Shown: positions 3,133 to 41,074 of the stretch, piece after piece | Numbering within the stretch: position 1 is the first letter of the stretch | Layout of the letters: the number at the start of each line of letters is the position of its first letter | NCBI GenBank assembly: GCA_963702845.1 | Contig: OY969763.1 | Coordinates: 736,001-800,000 of the forward strand | Length of the DNA stretch: 64,000 nt | Source of the DNA: an uncultured Verrucomicrobiae bacterium | GTDB taxonomy: Bacteria; Verrucomicrobiota; Verrucomicrobiia; Limisphaerales; Palsa-1400 | Reading direction: 5' to 3' | Translations under genes and position numbers: made by a program | Notes under the pieces: model-generated | What the model saw: only the letters and a program-made list of their open reading frames with translations | What the model was told of the DNA's origin: nothing | Databases searched by the model: none

Positions 3133-6100
3133 TTAGGGCCAAGACACCCGGTAGAAGCGAGACGGGTAGTTTGTCGCTGTTGCGTCGATGAAACTGAAGT
3201 TGCCGGGGGACAGTTCAACGGGTGTGCCAACTGGAAACCAGTTCGTCAGGTCGACCGAGCAGAGAATGGTGTAGTTCGCATTGGAAATCCCCGTGAACGA
3301 CGTCTGCCACGTGCCGTCGGGAGTAATCAGGCCGCTCGCGAGCCTGGGCGCAGGCACTGTTCCAATAAACGACACTGTGGCGCTGTAGAATGTGCCGAAG
3401 ACGTTCGATACCGCGATGCGGAGATAGTAGGTCGAGCCGGGACTTAAGTTGGTAAGGGTCGCGAAGATCGTTCTGAAATTAACAGTTCCTAAGACGCTGT
3501 TTGTGGTAGTCGAATTGCCAAAGGCAGGCGTCGTGCCCCAATCAAACCACGCGACACTACTTGTGCCGCCAGGAGATACTCTTCCTGAAACCGAGCAACT
3601 GGTATTTGTTGGTTGGGCTGAAGGAGTCGTTATCGACGGGTATTGGACCGGGACCGCAACGCCGTGATAGTATCCGGCACTTATGGCGACGAGATTGCTG
3701 GAGGTTGGACCATTCAGTTCGCCGTAAGCGTTGTCGCCCCACATTAGTAACGATCCGTTGGTTTGGAGGGCGATGTTGAAGTTACCCTTGCCGGAGATGG
3801 CCGACGCGGTGGAGGCGTTGGTCGGAAGGGGATTGTATATATTCGTTTCGACAAATGTAAGATACTGGTGATCGGTGATCGCTAAAGCGCTTGAAACGAC
3901 TTGGGCGATGTTCGATTGGGAATCGAGGAATGGATCAGGATCGTACGAACTCGCTCCCCATTTCGCAACGTGACCGTCGTTGAGCACGGCGTATCCGGGC
4001 GCGGTGATGGAGGCGATGTTTGAGTAATTTGTTGGTGCATTCCATGCGCCGACAGAATTGTCACCCCATACAACAATGCTCGAATCGCTACGCAGAGCCA
4101 TGCTGGTGTAGCCACCGGCGCTGATTGCGACGACGTTACTGAGACCGGTTGGAACGGTTGCTTCGCCAGCACGGGCGAGGCCGCCCCAGGCGACGACAGT
4201 TCCGTTGCTGCGTAGAGCGAGGTTGTGGTAAGCACCGGTGGCGATGGCGACATAGGTTGCGTCGGTGGGAGCGTTCGTTTGTCCGAGGGAGTTATCGCCC
4301 CAGCCGACAAGATGACCGTCGGAGCACAAAGCGAGATCGTGTGCGACCCCACCGCTGACCGTCACGATGTTTGAATAGTTCAGAGGAAAGGGGTAGCTGG
4401 CGGTGCCAGTTTGTGAACCGTAATAGGGCAAATAGATCCCCCAAGTAATTGGTCGTTGGCCGATCGCGAAGAGTTGGTCTGCTCCTTGGTTAATTCCGAA
4501 GGCGTTGCTGGCGACGAGGCGATAGTGGATGACGTATTGTGCTTGGGGTAGTACTCCGGTCAGGAGGTTTGTCGGAAGAATTGACTGGTCGGCGCCGCCT
4601 GCATCGAATGCGGTAGTGGTGTTTCCGTAAGCTGTGGAGTTGCCCCATTCGAACCAGGCAGTTGTTGGTGAGAAATTAGGTGAGACCATTCCACGAAGGA
4701 GAAGATTGGTTCTTGAAAGGACCCACGGTTGTAGTGTTGTCACTGCGGGAGTCGACCAGTTCAGGTTCACGGTGATCGTTGCTGGGGCGCTTTGGTATTG
4801 GCCGTCGTCCACCTGAAAATCGAAGGTGGAATATGGACTTCCTTCGTTGGGGGAACCGGGATCGTAAAACACGCGGCCAAAAGGATCTGATACAACACTG
4901 CTGACGGTGATTACGTCGCCGCGTGTGCCGTTTGTGTATTGGTATAGCGTTCCGATTGAAGGCGCGTTGAGGATCGTAAAACGAAGGGTGTCGCCGTTCG
5001 GGTCGCTTCCGTGCAAGGTGATTAACAGGTCGCGGCCGGGGAAGCCGCTCGTGGTCTGCGGAAGCGCGGAAGGGGCGCCGTTGTCGCCCAAAGCGACAGC
5101 ATGGTTTGCTCCCAATGAAAATGCGACCACGTTGCTGAGGCCGAGCGGAATTGCGAGGCCGCTGTTGCCCCATTCGACCAAAGTGCCGTCATTTCGCAGC
5201 GCCATGTTGCGTTGGGAGGAATTTGCGGCGATGGCCACGACATTGCTTAAACCAGTTGGGACGGGGTCGCCGGTGCCCCACGTTACGACGGTGCCGTCAT
5301 TTTTCAAAGCGAACGCGTTGTAAGTTCCGATTGAGATGCTGACGACGTTGGAGTTGTCCGGAGGTACGTTTGTTTGATTATAGAAGTTTGATCCCCATGC
5401 GACGATTGTTCCGTCGTTTTTCAAACCGAGTGCGGCATAGGGGCCTGTTGCCACGGCGACGAGGTTGCTTAACCCTGAGGGAACGGCGATGACATTGGCC
5501 GGAGCGGCGACGGCTGTTCCATTTGTCAGGAGTGCCAGATTGTAGTCTTGTCCGGGTGCAATCGACACCGCTTGAGGGATAAAGCTTGAGGGGGTGTAAC
5601 CGTGCCAACTGTAAACCGTTCCGTTCGAACCTTTCGCGGCGAAATGTTCCTCGCTGGCGCAGAGCGATAGAAGATTGCTGTAGGTAGAGCCAGGCGGGTT
5701 GGTGGAGAAAAACCCCGACCCCCAGCCGATCAAAGTTCCCGCGTCGGTGAGAGCTTCGCTGCATTGGCTTGATGCTGCCACAGCGACGGCGTTGGTAATG
5801 GAGCCGTGCGGCACGGCTTCGCCTGAGCCATTGTAGCCCCAGCCCCAGACTTTTCGGCCGACCCCAAAGATTTTTTCAGCGCCATACGTGATGCCGAAGG
5901 TGTTACTCACGACGAAACGGTAGTGATAAATGTATGCGGGAAGCAGGCCGGAGATTTTATTGGTTACATAAACGACAGTTGAGCCGGAGCCTGCGTCGGT
6001 TGTTGCCGATTGATTGCCGAAGTTCGAATTGGTGCCCCATTCAAACCACGCCACAGATTGCGTTTGATTTGGACTTGCCATGCCCGCGACGGTCGCAGTG

Positions 6101-33318: not shown

Positions 33319-33324
33319 CCCCGC

Positions 33325-33416
33325 GCCAGGGCCCATGGAATGTGGACTTACAAACCCCGCCAGGGCAGGAATGCAGCAACGGTAGTCTGCTCCGCATCCG
33401 CCGTGGTCACCCTGGC
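33325..33416 (+). ncRNA. ffs: Signal recognition particle RNA (4.5S, small bacterial SRP)
   Basis: Closing stem GCCAGGG/CCCTGGC; helix 8 motif CAGG-GCA-GGAA-TGC-AGCA with GNRA tetraloop; U-rich tail. Confidence 0.9.
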
Positions 33417-33468
33417 ATTTTCTTTTCTTTTAAGTCGTGCAACCAATAGATCAAAATTAGGTCATCGC

Positions 33469-33903
33469 ATGAAACATCTGCTCTGCCTGAGCCTGTTTAT
33501 CGCCGCAGCCTTTAGCGCGCTCGCCGCCGATTTGGGTGACGACGCCAAATCTGTTGAAGGAACGTGGATCCCCGCCGAAGCCGTCCTTGGTGGCAAACCG
33601 ATGCCCGAGGCTGTGCGGAAAAGCATCACCCTCAAATTGCATTCCGGTAAGTACGAAGTCCTCGTCGGCACCAATCCCGACAACGGAACGTATAAAATCG
33701 ATTCCACCAGCAAACCCAAAGCCATGACCATCGTTGGAACCGAAGGCCCGAACCACGGCAAAACATTCCCCGCAATTTACGAAATCAACCGCGATACCCT
33801 CCGCATCTGCTACGACTTGTCAGGCGCGAAACGCCCTGCCGAATTCAAAAGCATCGCCGGCACTCGACTGTATCTCGTCACATACAAACGCAAAAAGGAC
33901 TAA
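33469..33903 (+). CDS. Secreted TIGR03067-like domain protein
   Basis: Signal peptide, EGTW, GTYKIDSTSKPKAM, AIYEINRDTLRICY...RPAEFKS. Confidence 0.75.
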   Translation: MKHLLCLSLFIAAAFSALAADLGDDAKSVEGTWIPAEAVLGGKPMPEAVRKSITLKLHSGKYEVLVGTNPDNGTYKIDSTSKPKAMTIVGTEGPNHGKTFPAIYEINRDTLRICYDLSGAKRPAEFKSIAGTRLYLVTYKRKKD

Positions 33904-33957
33904 GCTCGTCTATCCAAGCTTTGTAGGAGACGAGGTAACGAGTCTCTAGAATCTTGT

Positions 33958-34386
33958 TTATCCTTCAGCTCTCCGCTTCCCGGCCGCAAGCATCGCACAA
34001 GCTTTCTCGATCCGACGCCTATGCGCCTCCGGTTCTTTCGCTGAATCCATCCAACCAATCAAGTCCCGGCGCTCGTTCGGCGTGAGATCGCTCCACTGAG
34101 CCTTTGCCTTCGGCGTAGCCTTGAGTGCGTTGTGCATATCCAGTGACACGATTGAAAAACAACAGGGCCGCCGCTTCCCATCCGCAAGCATCGAGCAAGC
34201 CCTCTCGATCCGGCGTTTACGTGTCTCCGCTTGTTTAGCTGCGTCAATCCAAGTGATAAAATCCCGGCGCGCAATCGGCGTGAGATTACTCCACGCAGCC
34301 TTTGCCGTCGCGGCACCCGCGAGCGCTTTACCGAAATCCATTGGCACACTGGCCTCTGATGCTTCTTCAGCCGGCTGGGGACTCAT
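33958..34386 (-). CDS. YdeI/OmpD-associated family protein (tandem duplicated domain)
   Basis: Two copies of AKAxWSxLTPxxRRDxIxWxDxAKxxExxxRRIExACxMLAxGKRR. Confidence 0.8.
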   Translation of the reverse strand: MSPQPAEEASEASVPMDFGKALAGAATAKAAWSNLTPIARRDFITWIDAAKQAETRKRRIERACSMLADGKRRPCCFSIVSLDMHNALKATPKAKAQWSDLTPNERRDLIGWMDSAKEPEAHRRRIEKACAMLAAGKRRAEG

Positions 34387-34390
34387 TTTA

Positions 34391-34705
34391 TTACGCGGCG
34401 ACATTCGAAGCTCCATCCTTCAAAATCGCCATGCCAGTCTTGATCTTGTAACGGATGGATAAATACCAAGGAAAAGCCACAACCCAAAGCAGCAGAAACC
34501 CAAAAAACAGAACGACCGGCGGATATGAAATGCCAGACCGATAACGCTGGAGCTGAATCCTGGACGAATCAATCGCCGCCCAAACTGCCGTGCCGAGAAT
34601 CAAAAAATAAATCAGAAACACATTCGTGGCACCGACCCTGAGACCGACAAACGATGTGAGCAAGAACAGTGCAATCGTCAGCAAAATAGCGTCACGTGTT
34701 TTCAT
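34391..34705 (-). CDS. Small membrane protein (3 TM), hypothetical
   Basis: MKTRDAILLTIALF...VAFPWYL; hydrophobic helices. Confidence 0.65.
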   Translation of the reverse strand: MKTRDAILLTIALFLLTSFVGLRVGATNVFLIYFLILGTAVWAAIDSSRIQLQRYRSGISYPPVVLFFGFLLLWVVAFPWYLSIRYKIKTGMAILKDGASNVAA

Positions 34706-34715
34706 AATTATCAGG

Positions 34716-35033
34716 TCAGGGCCCATGGTCGCGCCCGTGTTCCTCAGGCACTCTATGGCGAAAATATTCCAGCTCCACGACCGTACGCCGAGCCACTCCG
34801 AGCAAATATCGACGAAACCAAACTCCCCTCGTCGCCTGCCGAGCGGCCAACGGATCTCGCCGCACCTGTTCGACGCGAGGCTTGAGCTCCGAGGCGTCGA
34901 GTCCATGCCCAACCCAGTTCTCGCGATCGCGCTGCAGGAGCCAGTTGCCAACTCGCCGCTGCTGCTTGAAGTAAAGGTAGAAAGCGCCCAACGCCAGAAC
35001 CGTCAATTCGATTATCAAGGTCAACCAAGACAT
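34716..35033 (-). CDS. Hypothetical protein, possibly a degraded gene
   Basis: 105-aa ORF with N-terminal TM helix; competing overlapping frames. Confidence 0.35.
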   Translation of the reverse strand: MSWLTLIIELTVLALGAFYLYFKQQRRVGNWLLQRDRENWVGHGLDASELKPRVEQVRRDPLAARQATRGVWFRRYLLGVARRTVVELEYFRHRVPEEHGRDHGP

Positions 35034-35159
35034 ACTGGCTCATGACATTGACCTCGGTCACAGCCCCGACTCTGAGTCGGCGGACGTAGCGGAAGTCACT
35101 GACAACACAATATTGGTATTTTCATGCGCGTGCAATAATTCCTCACCTTGGGGCTGAGC

Positions 35160-35366
35160 TCATGCTGAACGATGGTACTCAGGGTGACACGTCCCACACC
35201 AGACGGCATCCTCAACACTGAGCGCGTTGTCGTTGAAACTCAAAACTCCGCCCGGAGAAGTAAACCCAGTCATGAACCGCTGCGCTTGAATGTGTTCTTC
35301 GCACACGGCACGTCCGCAGAACTGACAGACCGCTCGCGCCTCTTTTTCACACTTGATGCATTTCAT
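35160..35366 (-). CDS. Small Cys-rich putative zinc-binding protein
   Basis: CxxC...CxxCGRAVCEEH...CGTC pattern. Confidence 0.7.
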   Translation of the reverse strand: MKCIKCEKEARAVCQFCGRAVCEEHIQAQRFMTGFTSPGGVLSFNDNALSVEDAVWCGTCHPEYHRSA

Positions 35367-35380
35367 ATTTGAGTAATGCC

Positions 35381-35409
35381 GCCGAACATTCGCGGTGACT
35401 GGCGCCGAC
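35381..35409 (-). other. attC-like right half (R' core GTTCGGC)
   Basis: Minus strand GGTCGGCGCCAGTCACCGCGAAT-GTTCGGC, 14 nt before ATG 35366. Confidence 0.45.
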
Positions 35410-35437
35410 CCAGTCGTGTTTTTGTTTTACTTTAGCC
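35410..35437. repeat. 28-bp junction repeat, copy 1
   Basis: CCAGTCGTGTT-TTTGTT-TTACTTTAGCC. Confidence 0.8.
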
Positions 35438-35445
35438 TTTAGCAT

Positions 35446-36006
35446 TTAGCCTTCAGGCCTTTCTTTTGTCGCCTGCTGTCTGGCAAATACTTCTTCAAGA
35501 CGCCCTCGTACCGTCCGCACGTGTAAGATAGGGTAGACATTGAACAGTAGTTGAATCACGACAAACAGTGTCGCAACCACTACCTGCCGTTGCAGGCCGA
35601 TGAATACGATGTAAGGCGTGAACAACACCAATGCCCAAAAATGAATGGCTTCAGCCGATTCAACTTTTCGATAGAGCGCCCCCAGATCTGTTTTCCTGCT
35701 TTCGAGGTAGACCGAAGAGTTGAGATGGCGCAGTGGAGTATTCCGCAGAACCTTGCCAAAGCCATAGACACCCAGCTGGCCATACGTTGGGCCAGACATC
35801 TCCCATGCGCGAATCGCTCTCAACGTCTTGGGTATCCGAAGCCTGACGAGTGGTTGAGCGATCTTGGCCAAACCCATGAAATAGAACATTAACAGCAACC
35901 CAAGCCATGGTGACGCAAGGCCGATGACTCTTTGAAGCATGAAGAAGGAAATGCCGAAGCCGATGACGGTTGCGACCAATGCGATGATGCTGCGGAGAGT
36001 CTGCAC
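35446..36006 (-). CDS. Membrane protein, CrtO-like acyltransferase family (tentative)
   Basis: Four TM segments; AEAIHF...LFNVYPIL..R..R.RL pattern. Confidence 0.5.
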   Translation of the reverse strand: MQTLRSIIALVATVIGFGISFFMLQRVIGLASPWLGLLLMFYFMGLAKIAQPLVRLRIPKTLRAIRAWEMSGPTYGQLGVYGFGKVLRNTPLRHLNSSVYLESRKTDLGALYRKVESAEAIHFWALVLFTPYIVFIGLQRQVVVATLFVVIQLLFNVYPILHVRTVRGRLEEVFARQQATKERPEG

Positions 36007-36135
36007 GATGTCTATTCGCGACGCTTAATCGTCAGCCAATCCACCTCAGCTCGTGTAACTTCCCATTGCAGCGCCCCGACCCACGAGTCGTGTCGGTTGC
36101 AACCTGCACGCGAGCGCCTGCCGTTACATCCTCGT

Positions 36136-36924
36136 TTATACATCATTCACCGTAAGCGGCTTTGGAGTTTTACCATCGATGTCGGGGAAGCCATACTCTT
36201 GAGCTAACTGCGCTGCAACCAAAACTCTCCCTGTTCTCTCCATCACCCCGGCATCAGACGCCAGCGCCACAACCGCGCGCCCAATAAACTGTGGGGATTC
36301 CGAATTGCTCAAGTTCAACCATTCGGCTGCCTGCATAACTTTTTCTGTCCGCACCAACCCGGGATACAGTGATACCGCCGCCACATTGTGCTCCCGTAAT
36401 TCTCGTGCCATATCCGCTGTCATCTTGTCCGTCGCGGCTTTGGAAACTCCATAAGCGACATTTCCAATATATTTCTGCGCGGCCCAGAACGAAATATTGA
36501 CGATCAGCCCTCTTCTCTGGGCGACCATCACTTGCGCCGCCATTTGACTGGCCGCGTAATGAGCACGCACACCGGCCTGAAACATCGCGTCCCATCGCCA
36601 GAGCGGCTGCTGCCAAAAAGGGCGAGACCACGTAAACTGCCCATCCTCCAACATGTTCTCATAGCCGCCCCAGACGTTATTGACCAGGATGTCCAACCGT
36701 CCTTGCTCATCCGCAATCCGGCGAAATGCGGCCCCGACTTGCCCATCATTGCGATGGTCGCATTCAATCGCCGTGCCTTTGCCGGAGATATACCGCATAT
36801 CTTCGACCGATCGACCGGTGATATAAACCGTTGCGCCCGCCTCAATCAGTTCAAGAGCAATTCCTTTTCCGACCCCGCGGCTAGCTCCGGTCACAAGAGC
36901 AACTTTTCCGTTCAGCTTTAGCAT
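36136..36924 (-). CDS. Classical SDR oxidoreductase (DHRS1-like)
   Basis: TGASRGVG, LDILVNN, YGVSK catalytic motif. Confidence 0.9.
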   Translation of the reverse strand: MLKLNGKVALVTGASRGVGKGIALELIEAGATVYITGRSVEDMRYISGKGTAIECDHRNDGQVGAAFRRIADEQGRLDILVNNVWGGYENMLEDGQFTWSRPFWQQPLWRWDAMFQAGVRAHYAASQMAAQVMVAQRRGLIVNISFWAAQKYIGNVAYGVSKAATDKMTADMARELREHNVAAVSLYPGLVRTEKVMQAAEWLNLSNSESPQFIGRAVVALASDAGVMERTGRVLVAAQLAQEYGFPDIDGKTPKPLTVNDV

Positions 36925-36967
36925 AAAAATATTCTCTCTAAACTTACGCGCGCACAGCAGCAGCAAG

Positions 36968-36995
36968 CCAATCCTGTTTTTGATTTATTTCAGCA
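36968..36995. repeat. 28-bp junction repeat, copy 2
   Basis: CCAATCCTGTT-TTTGAT-TTATTTCAGCA; contains the stop codon of the upstream gene. Confidence 0.8.
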
Positions 36996-37778
36996 TGGTT
37001 CGGACACGTTTGCTTTGCGCTGCTGACAGTGCGTCGTCAGATAAGTTGCCGTGGAGGAAATATAAAGGTCAGGGCGACTGTGCCACTCGTGTTTGATGCC
37101 ACGCATAAGCAACGCACAATCCACCTCAACTGATCCTGGTGGAAACCGCTGGCGGTCGTCGAAAAAGCAAGATTGCGCTTCCTCAATGGCGAGCGGCGAG
37201 ACGGTCCAATTGAGCGAGTGCAACTCCATACCGTGATAATGCCCCGGAGTCTCGGTAGCCGAGTAACCGGTAGCTCCGAGCGAAAAGAACCCGGCGGCGG
37301 CCTCTAGCGAGGGAAAGATACTTGTCGGCGGCAACTGGCCGGCGAGGCAGCCGGCGAAGGCGATCTCTGTGCCTCCATCCGCCCGCACGATGCGGAGCGA
37401 GACACGGGAATGCGATTCGTCTGACTCGAAGCGGCTACGCTGAAAGATGCCGGGGAAGAAGCGTCCACCGAGCGTCTTGTTGAACCACGAATTCGTGTCA
37501 CGACGGGGAATGATGACCCCCTCTCGCTGCACGCCATCCTGCTCCCACTGGACGGCAATACGATGGGCAGCATTCTCTGAACTGAGGCCGACCCATGCTG
37601 GGACGAGGTGAGGTCTCAATTGCTTGAAACGAATCATGCAAACACCACCCACGCCGTAACCATCATACAACTTCGGTTTGAATGCTGGGGGAAGAACCCG
37701 ACGAAGCGCCTCGGGGTCGATGCGGTAGTTCAGCAAAACCCGCCTGTCGATAATACCGTGGATAGTGTCGAGAAACAT
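36990..37778 (-). CDS. DUF2071-like protein
   Basis: GIIDRRVLLNYRIDP...GGVCMIRF...SENAAHRIAVQW; family recalled from memory. Confidence 0.65.
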   Translation of the reverse strand: MFLDTIHGIIDRRVLLNYRIDPEALRRVLPPAFKPKLYDGYGVGGVCMIRFKQLRPHLVPAWVGLSSENAAHRIAVQWEQDGVQREGVIIPRRDTNSWFNKTLGGRFFPGIFQRSRFESDESHSRVSLRIVRADGGTEIAFAGCLAGQLPPTSIFPSLEAAAGFFSLGATGYSATETPGHYHGMELHSLNWTVSPLAIEEAQSCFFDDRQRFPPGSVEVDCALLMRGIKHEWHSRPDLYISSTATYLTTHCQQRKANVSEPC

Positions 37779-37794
37779 AAATGCAGGGCGACGC

Positions 37795-37823
37795 GCCCGA
37801 ACACCAAGCTCAGCGGCGGCCCG
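37795..37823 (-). other. attC-like right half
   Basis: Minus strand GGCCGCCGCTGAGCTTGGT-GTTCGGGC upstream of ATG 37778. Confidence 0.55.
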
Positions 37824-37851
37824 CCACTCGTGTTCTTGTTTTATTTTAGTT
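37824..37851. repeat. 28-bp junction repeat, copy 3
   Basis: CCACTCGTGTT-CTTGTT-TTATTTTAGTT, abutting the stop codon at 37850-37852. Confidence 0.8.
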
Positions 37852-38092
37852 ACTCATCTTCACCTTTAAACAAAAACTCCGCGACGCAGCGGCTCTGGCG
37901 GATGAGACATATGCCCAGCCCCACCAAAACCAAGGATGATATGGGATAAAACCAGTAGTCACCTGATGCGCCCATTCCTCTGGATCGCGCCATTGTGAAT
38001 AAACCTGAGATAATGGCTGGGATGCCGTGAATAACGACTGAAAGTCCCAGAATTTTGATCAACACATTGGCTAGCTGTTTTGTTTTCATCAT
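37850..38092 (-). CDS. Small two-TM membrane protein, hypothetical
   Basis: 80 aa, two hydrophobic helices. Confidence 0.65.
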   Translation of the reverse strand: MMKTKQLANVLIKILGLSVVIHGIPAIISGLFTMARSRGMGASGDYWFYPISSLVLVGLGICLIRQSRCVAEFLFKGEDE

Positions 38093-38129
38093 TAGTGCGA
38101 TTGGCTAGGCCACATCGTCATGGTTTTTC

Positions 38130-38543
38130 TCACTTCGCGTCGAACGTAAAAGCATAGTCTTGGGCTGACTCGCGAACACCAGCGGCTTTCGCGAGACGCT
38201 CAATCGCCTCCTCTAGAGTCACGTTCTTGAGAGCGAGCGTGATCTTCGAATTAGCCGCACCTGTGACTGGCCCGGTGATCACAAAATTGATTCCTTTGCT
38301 CTCAGGATCATTTTGCTTTGCGGCGGTCGATAGTCGCTGAAGCGCTTCTGCAAACGTAACGCCATCCAGATTGAACTCTGGCAGCACGATGCTCTTGGCC
38401 TTCGTGACAATCGCACGCTCCGATGTCTGTGCATTGGCTGCTTGTGACCGTGGCGGTATGGCGGAACTGCTCGGTGACTTCTTATCGCAGCCCGCTATCA
38501 AAACAGTGGCTGCCATAATTCCAGTGATAATTGGGTTTTTCAT
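38130..38543 (-). CDS. Lipoprotein with STN/secretin N-terminal-like domain
   Basis: Lipobox LIAGC; SIVLPEF..VTFAEAL...GINFV...ITLALKNVTLEEAI. Confidence 0.6.
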   Translation of the reverse strand: MKNPIITGIMAATVLIAGCDKKSPSSSAIPPRSQAANAQTSERAIVTKAKSIVLPEFNLDGVTFAEALQRLSTAAKQNDPESKGINFVITGPVTGAANSKITLALKNVTLEEAIERLAKAAGVRESAQDYAFTFDAK

Positions 38544-38556
38544 AAAACGAAGTGTG

Positions 38557-38581
38557 GCCTAACGATAGGAAGCTGAGCCAG
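38557..38581 (-). other. attC-like right half (canonical R' core GTTAGGC)
   Basis: Minus strand TGGCTCAGCTTCCTATC-GTTAGGC, 13 nt before ATG 38543. Confidence 0.6.
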
Positions 38582-38598
38582 GCAACAAATATCTCATC

Positions 38599-38937
38599 TC
38601 AGTAATCAGGCTCAAACTGAATCTGGAGAGCTGGTAAAAGCGAGAAACCGCCCCGCTGCAACCTCTCTTTCGTGTCTTTCATAACCTGCTGAAACTCGGT
38701 GTCACCTAGCTCTAACTCGCCGATGCCCTCAACACCGAATACGCCAAGCTCACGTCCGACCAACAGCAAATAATACTCTCCGCCTTCCATCGAAAAATTG
38801 CCCCAGTAATGTTGGAGACCAACGCGCTTGGCGGCTTGTATGAGAGGATGTGTGCGCGCCTCCAACTGCTCAAGCTCGGACTCATCTGTCACGTGATAAC
38901 GCTCCCCGTAATAAACGACACATGAATCAGCGCCCAT
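38599..38937 (-). CDS. Hypothetical protein
   Basis: 112-aa ORF with globular composition, co-oriented in the array. Confidence 0.65.
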   Translation of the reverse strand: MGADSCVVYYGERYHVTDESELEQLEARTHPLIQAAKRVGLQHYWGNFSMEGGEYYLLLVGRELGVFGVEGIGELELGDTEFQQVMKDTKERLQRGGFSLLPALQIQFEPDY

Positions 38938-39256
38938 AAAAGTATGTCATTCGAAGTCGCGTAAGCTCATTCGCAGCAAGCCTCTGACTCGAGGATTGGT
39001 TGCGACTTATTTCATCCTTCTGCGTTATCTGAACTACGCTAATCCTGAGCCATGGCCAATCAAGCGCAAATCCCGACCATCCCAGGCTCGTCGGACCAAT
39101 CCGCCACTTCCTGCAAAATACTTCGCGCTCTTGGCGTCCTTAGCGAGACCCTCTCCCACTTGGGGTCTTGGTGGTTTAATTACACTTTTGGTGATCACCT
39201 TGTAAGCGCAATTTTTTCCTTCAGCCTTCAGCCGTCAGCCTTTAGCCTTAACGTAG

Positions 39257-41074
39257 ATGTCTTATCAGGTCATAGCTCGAAAATATCGCCCGCAACGGTT
39301 TGAAGATGTCGTTGGCCAGGAGCACGTCAGCCAGACGCTCGCCAACGCCATCAAACAAAACCGTATCGCCCACGCGTACCTGTTCGTCGGCCCGCGCGGC
39401 ACTGGCAAGACAACCATTGCCCGTATTTTCGCCAAATGCCTCAACGCCACCAACGGCCCGCGCGTCGACTTTCCTGAAGACGATCCGAAAGCCAAAGAAA
39501 TCGCCGAAGGCCGCTCCCTCGACGTCCTCGAAATCGACGGCGCCAGCAACCGCGGCATTGACGAAATCCGCGATCTCCGCGAGACCGTGAAATACGCTCC
39601 GGCCTCTTCAAAGTTCAAAATTTACATTATCGACGAAGTCCACATGCTGACCAAAGAAGCGTTCAACGCGCTTCTCAAAACGCTCGAAGAACCGCCTGCG
39701 CATGTGAAGTTCATGTTCGCAACCACCGAGCCCGACAAAGTGCTCCCGACCATCCTGTCGCGTTGCCAACGTTTCGACCTGCGCCGTATTCCCAGCGCTT
39801 TGATCGTCAAACATCTCGGTGAAATTTCGAAAAAAGAAGGCGTCAAGATCGACGAACCCGCCTTGCTCGCGATCGCGCGCGGAGCCGACGGTGGCATGCG
39901 CGATGCCGAATCGACCTTGGATCAGCTTATCAGTTTTTGCGGTAATGAAATTGCCGAAGCCGATGTCCTCTCGATGTTCGGCCTCGCCGCCCAAAGCCAG
40001 ATCATCGCCCTCACCGACGCCATTCTCGCCGGCGATGCGGAAGACGCGTTGCGCCAGCTCAACGACCTGGCGCAACAGGGCAAAGACCTTGGTCGTCTCA
40101 TCACCGAGTTGCTTGGCCACTTTCGCAATTTGCTCATCTTCCAGGTCTCCAAGGGCGACATGCGTTTAGTCGAAGCCTCTGAATCGCAAGGCGCTTCTCT
40201 AAAACAACAATCGTCTGTCCTGACAGCAGACGCGCTCACCCGCATGCTCGACATTTTGACTGACTGCGAAGGCTCCTTGCGCGACACCACGTCGAAAAAG
40301 ATCCTCGTGGAAATCAGCGTGCTCAAAATGATCGAAGCCCGTAGCGCCGTCAGCCTCGACACCGTTTTGAAGCAAGTCCAGCAACTGCGCTCCGAAGGCG
40401 GCGGCGGAACATCAGGCGGAGGAGGCGCTCCGATTCGTTCGACCGCAACCGAACCTGTCCGTAAACCTGCTGCGCCCGCTCCAGCTAAAACGAGTGCGAT
40501 GACCGAAACGGCAACAGCCGCCGCTCCCGCTCCAGTCGCCACCGCTCCGACAGCTCCAGTAATTCCGGTTGCTGCTCCAGCGGGCCAGGACTTGGAAGGC
40601 CTTTGGGCTGCGCTTCTGATTCGAGTCACTGGGTTTGCCCGTGCTTATTTTGTCGAAGCGCATCCGGTTTCATTTAACGGAAAAGTTTTTGCAATCGGGT
40701 TCGGTGCCGAACATGTCGACAACATTTCCTTGGTCGATAACCCCAAGAATCAGGCTATGCTCCAAACCAAACTCGCCGAGCTCGGTCACCCGAACGTGCA
40801 AGTGAAGTTCGTCAAAGCCGAACCGCCGGCCAACCGACAACGTGTCGAGGCACCGGTAGAACCGGAACCCACGTCGGCTCCGGCTGCACCAGCGACGCCC
40901 GCCGCCGCGCCCGGGAAACCTGCAACCGTCGCTACCGCCAGAGCAGCCGCTCCAGCCGCTCCCGCTCCCGCTGCTGCGCCGAAAATGACGAAGGACGATT
41001 TCAAGAACGACCCGCTCATACAAAAGGCCCTTGAGATCTTCAAGGGCCAGATAGTTGACGTTCGACAGACCTAA
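39257..41074 (+). CDS. dnaX: DNA polymerase III subunit gamma/tau
   Basis: MSYQVIARKYRP, GPRGTGKT, EIDGASN, IIDEVHML, SRC. Confidence 0.97.
   Translation: MSYQVIARKYRPQRFEDVVGQEHVSQTLANAIKQNRIAHAYLFVGPRGTGKTTIARIFAKCLNATNGPRVDFPEDDPKAKEIAEGRSLDVLEIDGASNRGIDEIRDLRETVKYAPASSKFKIYIIDEVHMLTKEAFNALLKTLEEPPAHVKFMFATTEPDKVLPTILSRCQRFDLRRIPSALIVKHLGEISKKEGVKIDEPALLAIARGADGGMRDAESTLDQLISFCGNEIAEADVLSMFGLAAQSQIIALTDAILAGDAEDALRQLNDLAQQGKDLGRLITELLGHFRNLLIFQVSKGDMRLVEASESQGASLKQQSSVLTADALTRMLDILTDCEGSLRDTTSKKILVEISVLKMIEARSAVSLDTVLKQVQQLRSEGGGGTSGGGGAPIRSTATEPVRKPAAPAPAKTSAMTETATAAAPAPVATAPTAPVIPVAAPAGQDLEGLWAALLIRVTGFARAYFVEAHPVSFNGKVFAIGFGAEHVDNISLVDNPKNQAMLQTKLAELGHPNVQVKFVKAEPPANRQRVEAPVEPEPTSAPAAPATPAAAPGKPATVATARAAAPAAPAPAAAPKMTKDDFKNDPLIQKALEIFKGQIVDVRQT

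Follow-up and report, generated by a model that had tools for sequence, protein, structure and literature searches.

Between ffs and dnaX, the chromosome of this uncultured Verrucomicrobiae bacterium carries a 5.8-kb insertion in which unrelated genes are punctuated by a direct repeat, which raises the question whether this repeat is the site of a new gene-capture system or belongs to a system already known. Positions given here refer to the 64-kb window, the whole stretch of DNA that was analysed. The insertion is bordered on the left by ffs, the gene of the SRP RNA (33324–33420, plus strand; Rfam RF00169, 66.6 bits), and on the right by dnaX (39257–41074, plus strand; Pfam), and the array genes run head to tail on the minus strand.

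The repeat itself is genuine. Three 28-bp copies in the same orientation, all on the plus strand, were located exactly where an initial annotation had placed them (copy 1, 35410–35437; copy 2, 36968–36995; copy 3, 37824–37851), with pairwise identities of 21, 23 and 21 over 26 nt, and they are the only sites with at least 20 of 26 matching positions on both strands of the 6.03-Mb genome. Counted from the right-hand end of copies 1, 2 and 3, the upstream stop codon begins at +9, -5 and -1, respectively, in line with the reported position at or near stop codons. Short contigs from public runs, which could be kin of the source sample, extend through or as far as copies 1 and 2 without a single difference (X3 records 17-18, X1 record 6). 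A position weight matrix built from the three copies scored 40–42 bits at its own sites and no higher than 23 bits elsewhere in the genome; 13 genome matches exceeded 17 bits, compared with 6, 3 and 3 in three shuffles. The genome has no copy beyond the array, and a 23-nt pattern of copies 1 and 3, allowing up to two mismatches, was absent from 300 genomes of the order. At three mismatches the motif gave 11 matches in family genomes, no more than the reversed control (23), and only short chance matches in a phylum sample of 150; neither motif nor tail occurred in viral contigs. One exact match in a genome-contig collection proved to lie on an AT-rich Bacteroidales contig and has no attC arm, and three metagenome matches represented a single coding sequence. 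Read as a coding remnant, the motif shows an open frame in which the changes are conservative, but six of them do not suffice for a test.

Five weaker copies had also been proposed. These agree at only 10–14 of the 25 specified consensus positions, which is near chance, as 2%, 6% and 17% of 25-nt neighbourhoods in the genome reach 14, 13 and 12 positions. Those at 34690 and 38073 are minus-strand gene starts reading ATGAAAACA, that at 33950 is the linker behind a GTAG-type REP, and those at 36047 and 38995 sit at true attC remnants.

The annotation further recognized a XerD-like box in one arm of the motif. In Xer/pdif sites, a 6-bp spacer separates two inverted 11-bp arms, of which the XerD arm is conserved, and the motif shares with pdif modules the 28-bp length, the AT-richness and the location between accessory genes. 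In contrast to these, the motif lacks inverted arms (0 of 11 dyad pairs in every copy) and does not alternate, and its XerD likeness of 7, 7 and 8 of 11 in copies 1–3 is equalled by 33%, 60% and 8% of shuffles (p = 0.08–0.6), hence at chance. A new symmetrical site used in trans by a Xer-like tyrosine recombinase would fit a genuine repeat in a single orientation at gene ends, and the genome does hold 11 PF00589 matches, two of them XerC/D-sized. With a motif private to one array, whose layout is accounted for by attC arms and cassette homologues, this explanation is largely refuted and highly improbable. A dif-like scan yielded four poor matches and no usable dif.

To the left of every copy lies an attC arm of about 25 nt, which the initial annotation had overlooked. 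As judged from sequence likeness, every copy forms the inner part of a junction of about 55 bp, in which a T-rich tail is attached to the apex of an attC R'-L' arm. The R' core is retained at all three copies, 24–27 nt from the motif. The tail resembles the head of the host's TTTAGCC heptamer arrays and occupies the place of the R''-L'' arm. The left 16 nt of the motif, common to the copies, depart from the attC loop by a gap of 3–4 nt and carry TT in place of GA. Searches of the genome, the family, the phylum sample and viral contigs yielded no donor for the exact tail. Canonical attC sites, which IntI recombines as a folded bottom strand, have pairing R''-L'' and L'-R' arms and span 57–141 bp, whereas junctions 1–3 are without a pairing L''; the motif was rejected as a short 57-bp attC, as no L-box pairing was present. 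It was likewise rejected as a general head of heptamer arrays, since only its last 12 nt or so fit.

The attC affinity of the junctions was assessed with a model built from 14 sites outside the window; two earlier, overly strict heuristics had returned no clusters. In the window, the top three matches of the model are array junctions, which share one strand (E values of 0.0048 for junction 3, 0.021 for the leading junction and 0.035 for a site at 36053–36128 that was not part of the training set). The next match has an E value of 0.14, and the model found no match for arms 1 and 2. Genome-wide, 50 matches scored above the best reversed-genome control, including the 14 training sites, and junction 3 reached 16.8 bits versus 14.1 for the best control. 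For arm 1, arm 3 and the leading arm, the best-matching sequences elsewhere in the genome are attC sites that align in register: arm 3 matches four of them at 18/20, and the best match of arm 1 is the attC at G000:1601484 (17/20, background 16/20). Since no attC was among the top genome matches of arm 2, its assignment rests on its likeness to arm 3. In addition, an R'-like GTT was present 16–24 nt ahead of four of six tested unit starts, compared with 169 of 3971 long ORFs. An arm pattern found nothing in 200 genomes of the order, a result that says little because the pattern is narrow; G001, a same-genus genome which holds such arms, was outside this sample.

Read from dnaX on the minus strand, the array begins with a leading hybrid junction (38951–39025), in which a type-B attC arm extends to GATTG (38998) and is followed by a heptamer-like tail; the arm matches attC sites at 25–28 of 35 positions and model positions 8–47, its R' is mutated, and the tail matches copy 2 at 15 of 21. 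The first unit, a 112-aa ORF without assigned function (38599–38937), has no relatives in viral contigs and is followed by the right arm only of a type-A attC (38557–38580), with L', spacer and R' GTTAGGC, which by eye resembles the attC ends of relatives' integrons. Behind the next gene, encoding a lipoprotein-like protein with an STN domain (38130–38543), the sequence of the fused junction at 38093–38129 retains only an R''-like box at about 38104–38110, and a related public-run contig (X1 record 8) has 21 extra nt there. The gene of an 80-aa membrane protein, orf80 (37850–38092), then ends at hybrid junction 3 (37796–37851), with a type-B R'-L' arm at 37796–37827 and copy 3. The DUF2071 gene (36990–37778; Pfam PF09844) ends at hybrid junction 2 (36937–37004), which combines a decayed arm (36937–36967), copy 2 and the R'' box and spacer of the DUF2071 cassette (36998–37004), and is 76% identical to junction 3 over 42 nt. 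The short-chain dehydrogenase (SDR) gene (36136–36927; Pfam PF00106) has the one near-complete, degenerate attC of the array (36053–36128), in which the model match and the fold indicate both R'' and R'; the remaining attC material outside the hybrid junctions consists of further remnants. The gene of a CrtO-like membrane protein (35446–36006; Pfam PF18927) has its stop codon within a plus-strand TTTAGCC-type heptamer array (35431–35458) that continues copy 1, and copy 1 together with an R'-L' arm at 35381–35409 forms hybrid junction 1 (35381–35437). A 68-aa Cys-rich ORF (35160–35366), with an R' core 21 nt upstream, is followed by a degenerate long-type attC remnant (35040–35160), recognized by its likeness to a same-genus array: positions 35054–35112 are 80% identical to a junction there, and 35083–35112 match the interior of a complete attC.

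The ffs-proximal part comprises two small ORFs of about 104 and 105 aa without assigned function (34391–35033, minus strand), a gene with two OmdA/YdeI domains and an internal 177-nt repeat (33958–34416, minus strand; Pfam PF13376), a GTAG-type REP-like host repeat followed by a linker and one heptamer (33923–33946, plus strand; 24 genome matches, counting both arms of palindromic pairs), and a TIGR03067-domain gene on the opposite, plus strand (33469–33903; NCBIfam). No attC remnant was seen at the latter, nor in the examined flanks of its homologues.

Comparison with relatives supports a cassette origin. In G055, the homologue of orf80 is still an intact cassette: one attC precedes it, and a complete one lies 9 nt past the same stop codon. 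A distant DUF2071 homologue in G095 likewise starts at an attC. Against this origin, most of the TIGR03067, OmdA and DUF2071 homologues examined have no attC in their flanks (attC at one of 25 DUF2071 loci). A full ffs lies less than 200 nt from dnaX in 19 of 20 relatives (20 fetched of 61 searched), and one public contig spans the empty ffs-dnaX site. At the same locus, directly behind speA-ffs, G001 carries a cassette array of other content whose attCs are intact; this genome also has two fusions of an attC arm to a heptamer at TTG. The initial annotation was right in seeing an integron-like array of unrelated accessory genes that was inserted as a block. Its proposal of a non-attC site fails, because the junctions hold halves of the genome's own attC family and one unit has a homologue that is a cassette with intact attC; the motif most likely belongs, as an unusual variant, to a gene-capture system already known and not to a new one. 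A tyrosine recombinase, as it had suggested, is the probable builder, now missing from the locus. No TIGR02249 match for IntI exceeded the cut-off in the genome, which is rated 89.8% complete, and a relative's IntI as query detected two loci only, at 28% identity; four of 30 family genomes have an IntI over the cut-off.

We consider it likely that the ffs-dnaX spacer holds an integron cassette array that lacks an integrase (CALIN) and has decayed, with hybrid attC/host-repeat boundaries. As in CALINs (PMC4889954), small unrelated genes are arrayed on the same strand, attC material marks the junctions, and intI is absent. CALINs are defined by two or more attC sites that share a strand and lie less than 4 kb apart; here, three same-strand model matches lie within 3 kb, but only one of them is near-complete. 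No integron integrase is nearby. The layout of cassettes, in which a gene starts behind an R' and is followed by an attC, is supported by the four of six unit starts and the orf80 homologue; the ffs-proximal TIGR03067, OmdA and two small ORFs are putative units. Unlike in CALINs, only one near-complete attC is present, most sites are halves, and a host-derived tail is common to three junctions. Truncated-attC (fused) and delta-attI cassettes have been described (Partridge 2009, as summarised in PMC12901181; PMC8876359), in which, as here, part of the attC is missing or a foreign piece that recurs behind unrelated genes stands in its place; the STN-orf80 junction, keeping R'' only, resembles the former type. 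In contrast to delta-attI cassettes, the recurring piece is an attC arm plus the head of a host heptamer array. The motif was rejected as an attI or part of one, being unlike, by eye, both the attI beside IntI in relatives of the family and the attI-like module of the genome.

In this decayed array, IntI acting in trans, or lost since, would have inserted the cassettes. One attC arm may then have fused at its apex, at a common TTG, to a host heptamer element, the first time probably at the leading end of the array, and copies of this hybrid would have displaced the left arms of three cassettes. Because arms 1 and 3 belong to different attC subtypes, simple duplication of a single unit does not account for all three copies. 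For the copying, we infer either aberrant IntI recombination, as in delta-attI-type cassettes, or local conversion via short shared sequence. Cassettes without a foldable hairpin should no longer excise one by one, and the genes would therefore be in the course of fixation as a fused block; the cassettes are fused and probably locked. Fold z-scores of junctions 1–3 were -1.3, +1.7 and -1.7. Unit gain or loss at the motif was seen in no close strain.

That the hybrid is instead a functional double-stranded, attI- or attG-like entry site still used by IntI, with mobile gene-plus-hybrid units as delta-attC analogues of delta-attI cassettes, is unlikely. The R' core in all three copies and the many copies of an attI-like module in the genome would be in line with it, and delta-attI cassettes do recombine (PMC12901181), but the genome lacks IntI, the motif is confined to the array, arm 2 is decayed and the leading R' is mutated. 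Very unlikely is retention of the hybrids by selection as expression signals, either as plus-strand terminators against read-through from ffs or as promoters of the next gene. Copy 1 forms a hairpin with a T-run on the plus strand and copy 3 overlaps TTTAAA-16-TAAAAT on the minus strand; however, copy 2 has no fold, terminators and promoters numbered 7 and 2 versus 6.7 and 3.6 in shuffles, and such selection would cover retention, not origin.

The joint itself deserves consideration. Intact type-B attC loops read GATTGT/C and then AAA, and TTGT|T is found at four of six hybrid junctions, namely copies 1 and 3 and the two fusions in G001. TTGT/T on the attC bottom strand, adjoining the gene 3' end, is the target of group IIC-attC introns, for which a joining model has been stated (PMC7923331, PMC3001079). 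The joint thereby recalls the intron model of cassette making, but no intron was found by a domain-V pattern or by maturase searches (PF08388; G000, G001 and G002). That the joints are such intron products after Leon-Roy, in which an attC and a terminator-like host repeat (copy 1 qualifies by its hairpin and T-run) were each targeted at TTGT/T and joined at the apex as failed or intermediate products, is quite unlikely, although group II maturases occur in 19 of 30 family genomes. Published introns target R'' rather than the apex; no maturase match was obtained in three genomes of the genus; 20 maturase loci with about 1.5 kb of flank on each side gave one weak attC match (E 0.04); orf80 is already a complete cassette elsewhere; and the junctions are not independent, with TTGT frequent in T-rich DNA.

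It is also unlikely that, in this genus, a retro-element-like or hairpin-tip process links host heptamer repeats to attC apices, always at TTG(T). The hybrid boundary would then attach to gene ends and could bring ordinary chromosomal genes, such as the OmdA and TIGR03067 genes and most DUF2071 relatives, into cassette arrays. If so, the junctions would record a route of cassette making, not decay alone, and the recurrent joint, if an active joining process, would bear on the open question of cassette origin. Among the papers listed in literature searches, titles and abstract openings mention no attC-heptamer fusions, and none in one such list combines attC, heptamer and Verrucomicrobia.

On the most likely reading, a decayed CALIN, the locus would be a clear case of integron cassettes becoming locked into a chromosome. 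CALINs with very degenerate attCs were suggested in 2016 to be a step toward gene fixation (PMC4889954), and the array would show a route, by loss of attC arms and copying of a hybrid attC/host-repeat boundary between junctions. The ffs-dnaX spacer would be a genus-level hotspot, and arrays of this kind are likely to be missed by attC-based scans.

The 28-bp repeat is real. Its three copies, which the initial annotation had placed at 35410-35437, 36968-36995 and 37824-37851 (copies 1-3), were found at these positions on the forward strand with mutual identities of 21-23/26, and they are the only matches of at least 20/26 on both strands of the source genome, a 6.03-Mb single contig. Short contigs from public runs span or reach copies 1 and 2 with zero differences; this speaks against an assembly error, although a relation of these runs to the source sample is possible. 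Five further weak copies did not hold up, as they reach 10-14/25, and random neighbourhoods score that high at rates of 2-17% or more; two are the starts of genes, a third comes after a REP and the remaining two are located at attC remnants. Just beyond the window (C1:803718-811000), a repeat of about 37 bp occurs in four copies and is unlike the 28-bp motif.

The 5.8-kb region between ffs (33324-33420) and dnaX (from 39257) is an insertion, as the full ffs is located less than 200 nt from dnaX in 19 of the 20 relatives, out of 61 genomes searched, whose dnaX-upstream DNA was retrieved, and one metagenome contig joins 33421 directly to 39257. In the twentieth relative, the same-genus genome G001, only the 3' half of ffs was present, at a contig end. 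The array genes (OmdA, CrtO-like, SDR, DUF2071, STN lipoprotein and unknowns) are unrelated and run head to tail on the reverse strand, with the TIGR03067 gene as the exception. The OmdA gene is duplicated in tandem within itself (33973-34347; 177 nt, 74%), and the leader of the CrtO-like unit (36018-36051) resembles the interior of the DUF2071 gene (37098-37131) by 74% over 34 nt, possibly by chance.

G001 lacks the 28-bp motif and carries another cassette array, its attCs intact, directly after speA-ffs, as well as two fusions, at TTG, between an attC arm and a composite repeat of heptamers (TTTAGCC-type host repeats). Composite host repeats also precede dnaX in the window (39060-39250), where 39121-39155 is 86% like one within the G001 array. 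In G001, contig C741 (L068, L145) contains ffs followed by the cassette array and contig C780 (L008) a slightly different ffs 3' half before dnaX, indicating either that the target was duplicated or that the assembly mixes strains.

An attC model was built from 14 sites of the source genome, all outside the window. The family spans 91-96 bp, and 50 model matches, the 14 training sites included, exceed the best reversed-genome control. Within the window, the array junctions at 37797 (E 0.0048), 38959 (0.021) and 36056 (0.035) ranked as the top three, all on one strand. The arm to the left of copy 3 shares 18/20 positions with four attC sites, and that left of copy 1 is closest to an attC of another subtype (17/20; background 16/20). 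The top matches of arm 2 include no attC, but it resembles junction 3 (76% over 42 nt). At the leading junction (38951..39025), the attC match extends to GATTG at the apex. Thus, of the proposed non-attC boundary of an integron-like array, the array stands, and the non-attC part falls, since attC arms adjoin the copies, in the case of arm 2 by likeness to junction 3. Elsewhere in the source genome, three type-B attC sites (C1:3667421, 4072747 and 4308779) share one cut point, model position 76, after which the same sequence follows in all three.

The arm matches indicate that each motif copy continues the R'-L' arm to about the apex and then passes into a T-rich tail. This tail runs on as a host heptamer array in copy 1, abuts the R'' box and spacer of the DUF2071 cassette in copy 2 and the stop codon in copy 3; at the leading junction it matches copy 2 at 15/21. 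Among 139 model matches in the source genome, only the leading junction is a heptamer-linked half site, the other half sites being without tail. No donor of the exact tail was found in the source genome, family genomes, 300 order genomes, viral contigs or a phylum sample of 150. A TTGT/T joint is present in four of the six hybrid junctions and equals the IIC-attC target published in PMC7923331, which would suit cassette-making by such an intron. However, the joint sits at the apex, the hybrid junctions are not independent of each other, and group II maturases, present in 19 of 30 family genomes, were not found in the source genome, G001 or the same-genus G002, nor was an intron, rendering this origin improbable.

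At least some of the array units are cassettes. An R'-like GTT was located 16-24 nt upstream of the start in 4/6 tested units, compared to 169/3971 long ORFs. In G055, a homologue of orf80, the gene of an 80-aa membrane protein (37850..38092), has the same stop codon, with a complete attC beginning 9 nt behind it; the homologues in G017 and G106 showed none. Of 25 DUF2071 loci, one has a distant homologue that starts at an attC, and homologues of TIGR03067 and OmdA had no attC in the flanks inspected. At L233 (G095:C43), a full attC precedes the start of a DUF2071 homologue whose end carries only the right arm of an attC, indicating that arm loss occurs in other genomes too.

No IntI exceeded the cut-off in the source genome, compared to 4/30 family genomes, where the attI beside intI is unlike the 28-bp motif. 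An attI-like module occurs in the source genome in at least seven copies (C1:1700019-1731240) and at least four (C1:176997-180660). In L031 (G013:C192), the place expected for attI, upstream of intI near 3370, is taken by the right arm of an attC that contains two N, and a sequence resembling attI is located farther along this array. The suggested XerD-like box resembles its model only at chance level and dyad symmetry is absent; seven Y1 transposase-family matches in the source genome showed no link to the motif. Tested as canonical attC, delta-attI cassette and Xer site, the region agreed with none.

The region is therefore an inserted array whose junctions carry attC halves, with a shared tail replacing the left arm and no integrase. 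Its cassettes were probably assembled by IntI. Entry at a plain genomic site is a described route (10.1101/2022.09.11.507474). An attC apex would then have fused with a host heptamer element, and aberrant IntI recombination or local conversion may have spread copies of the hybrid to three cassette ends. This copying is the weak point of the model because arms 1 and 3 differ in subtype and the exact-tail donor was not found. The cassettes would now be unable to fold attC and hence be locked. The region works like a degenerate CALIN, a cassette array with attC and without integrase, as outlined in PMC4889954, and its truncated or replaced attC ends are comparable to those in PMC12901181 and PMC8876359. 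It most likely represents an unusual form of a known gene-capture system, the decayed, integrase-less cassette array.
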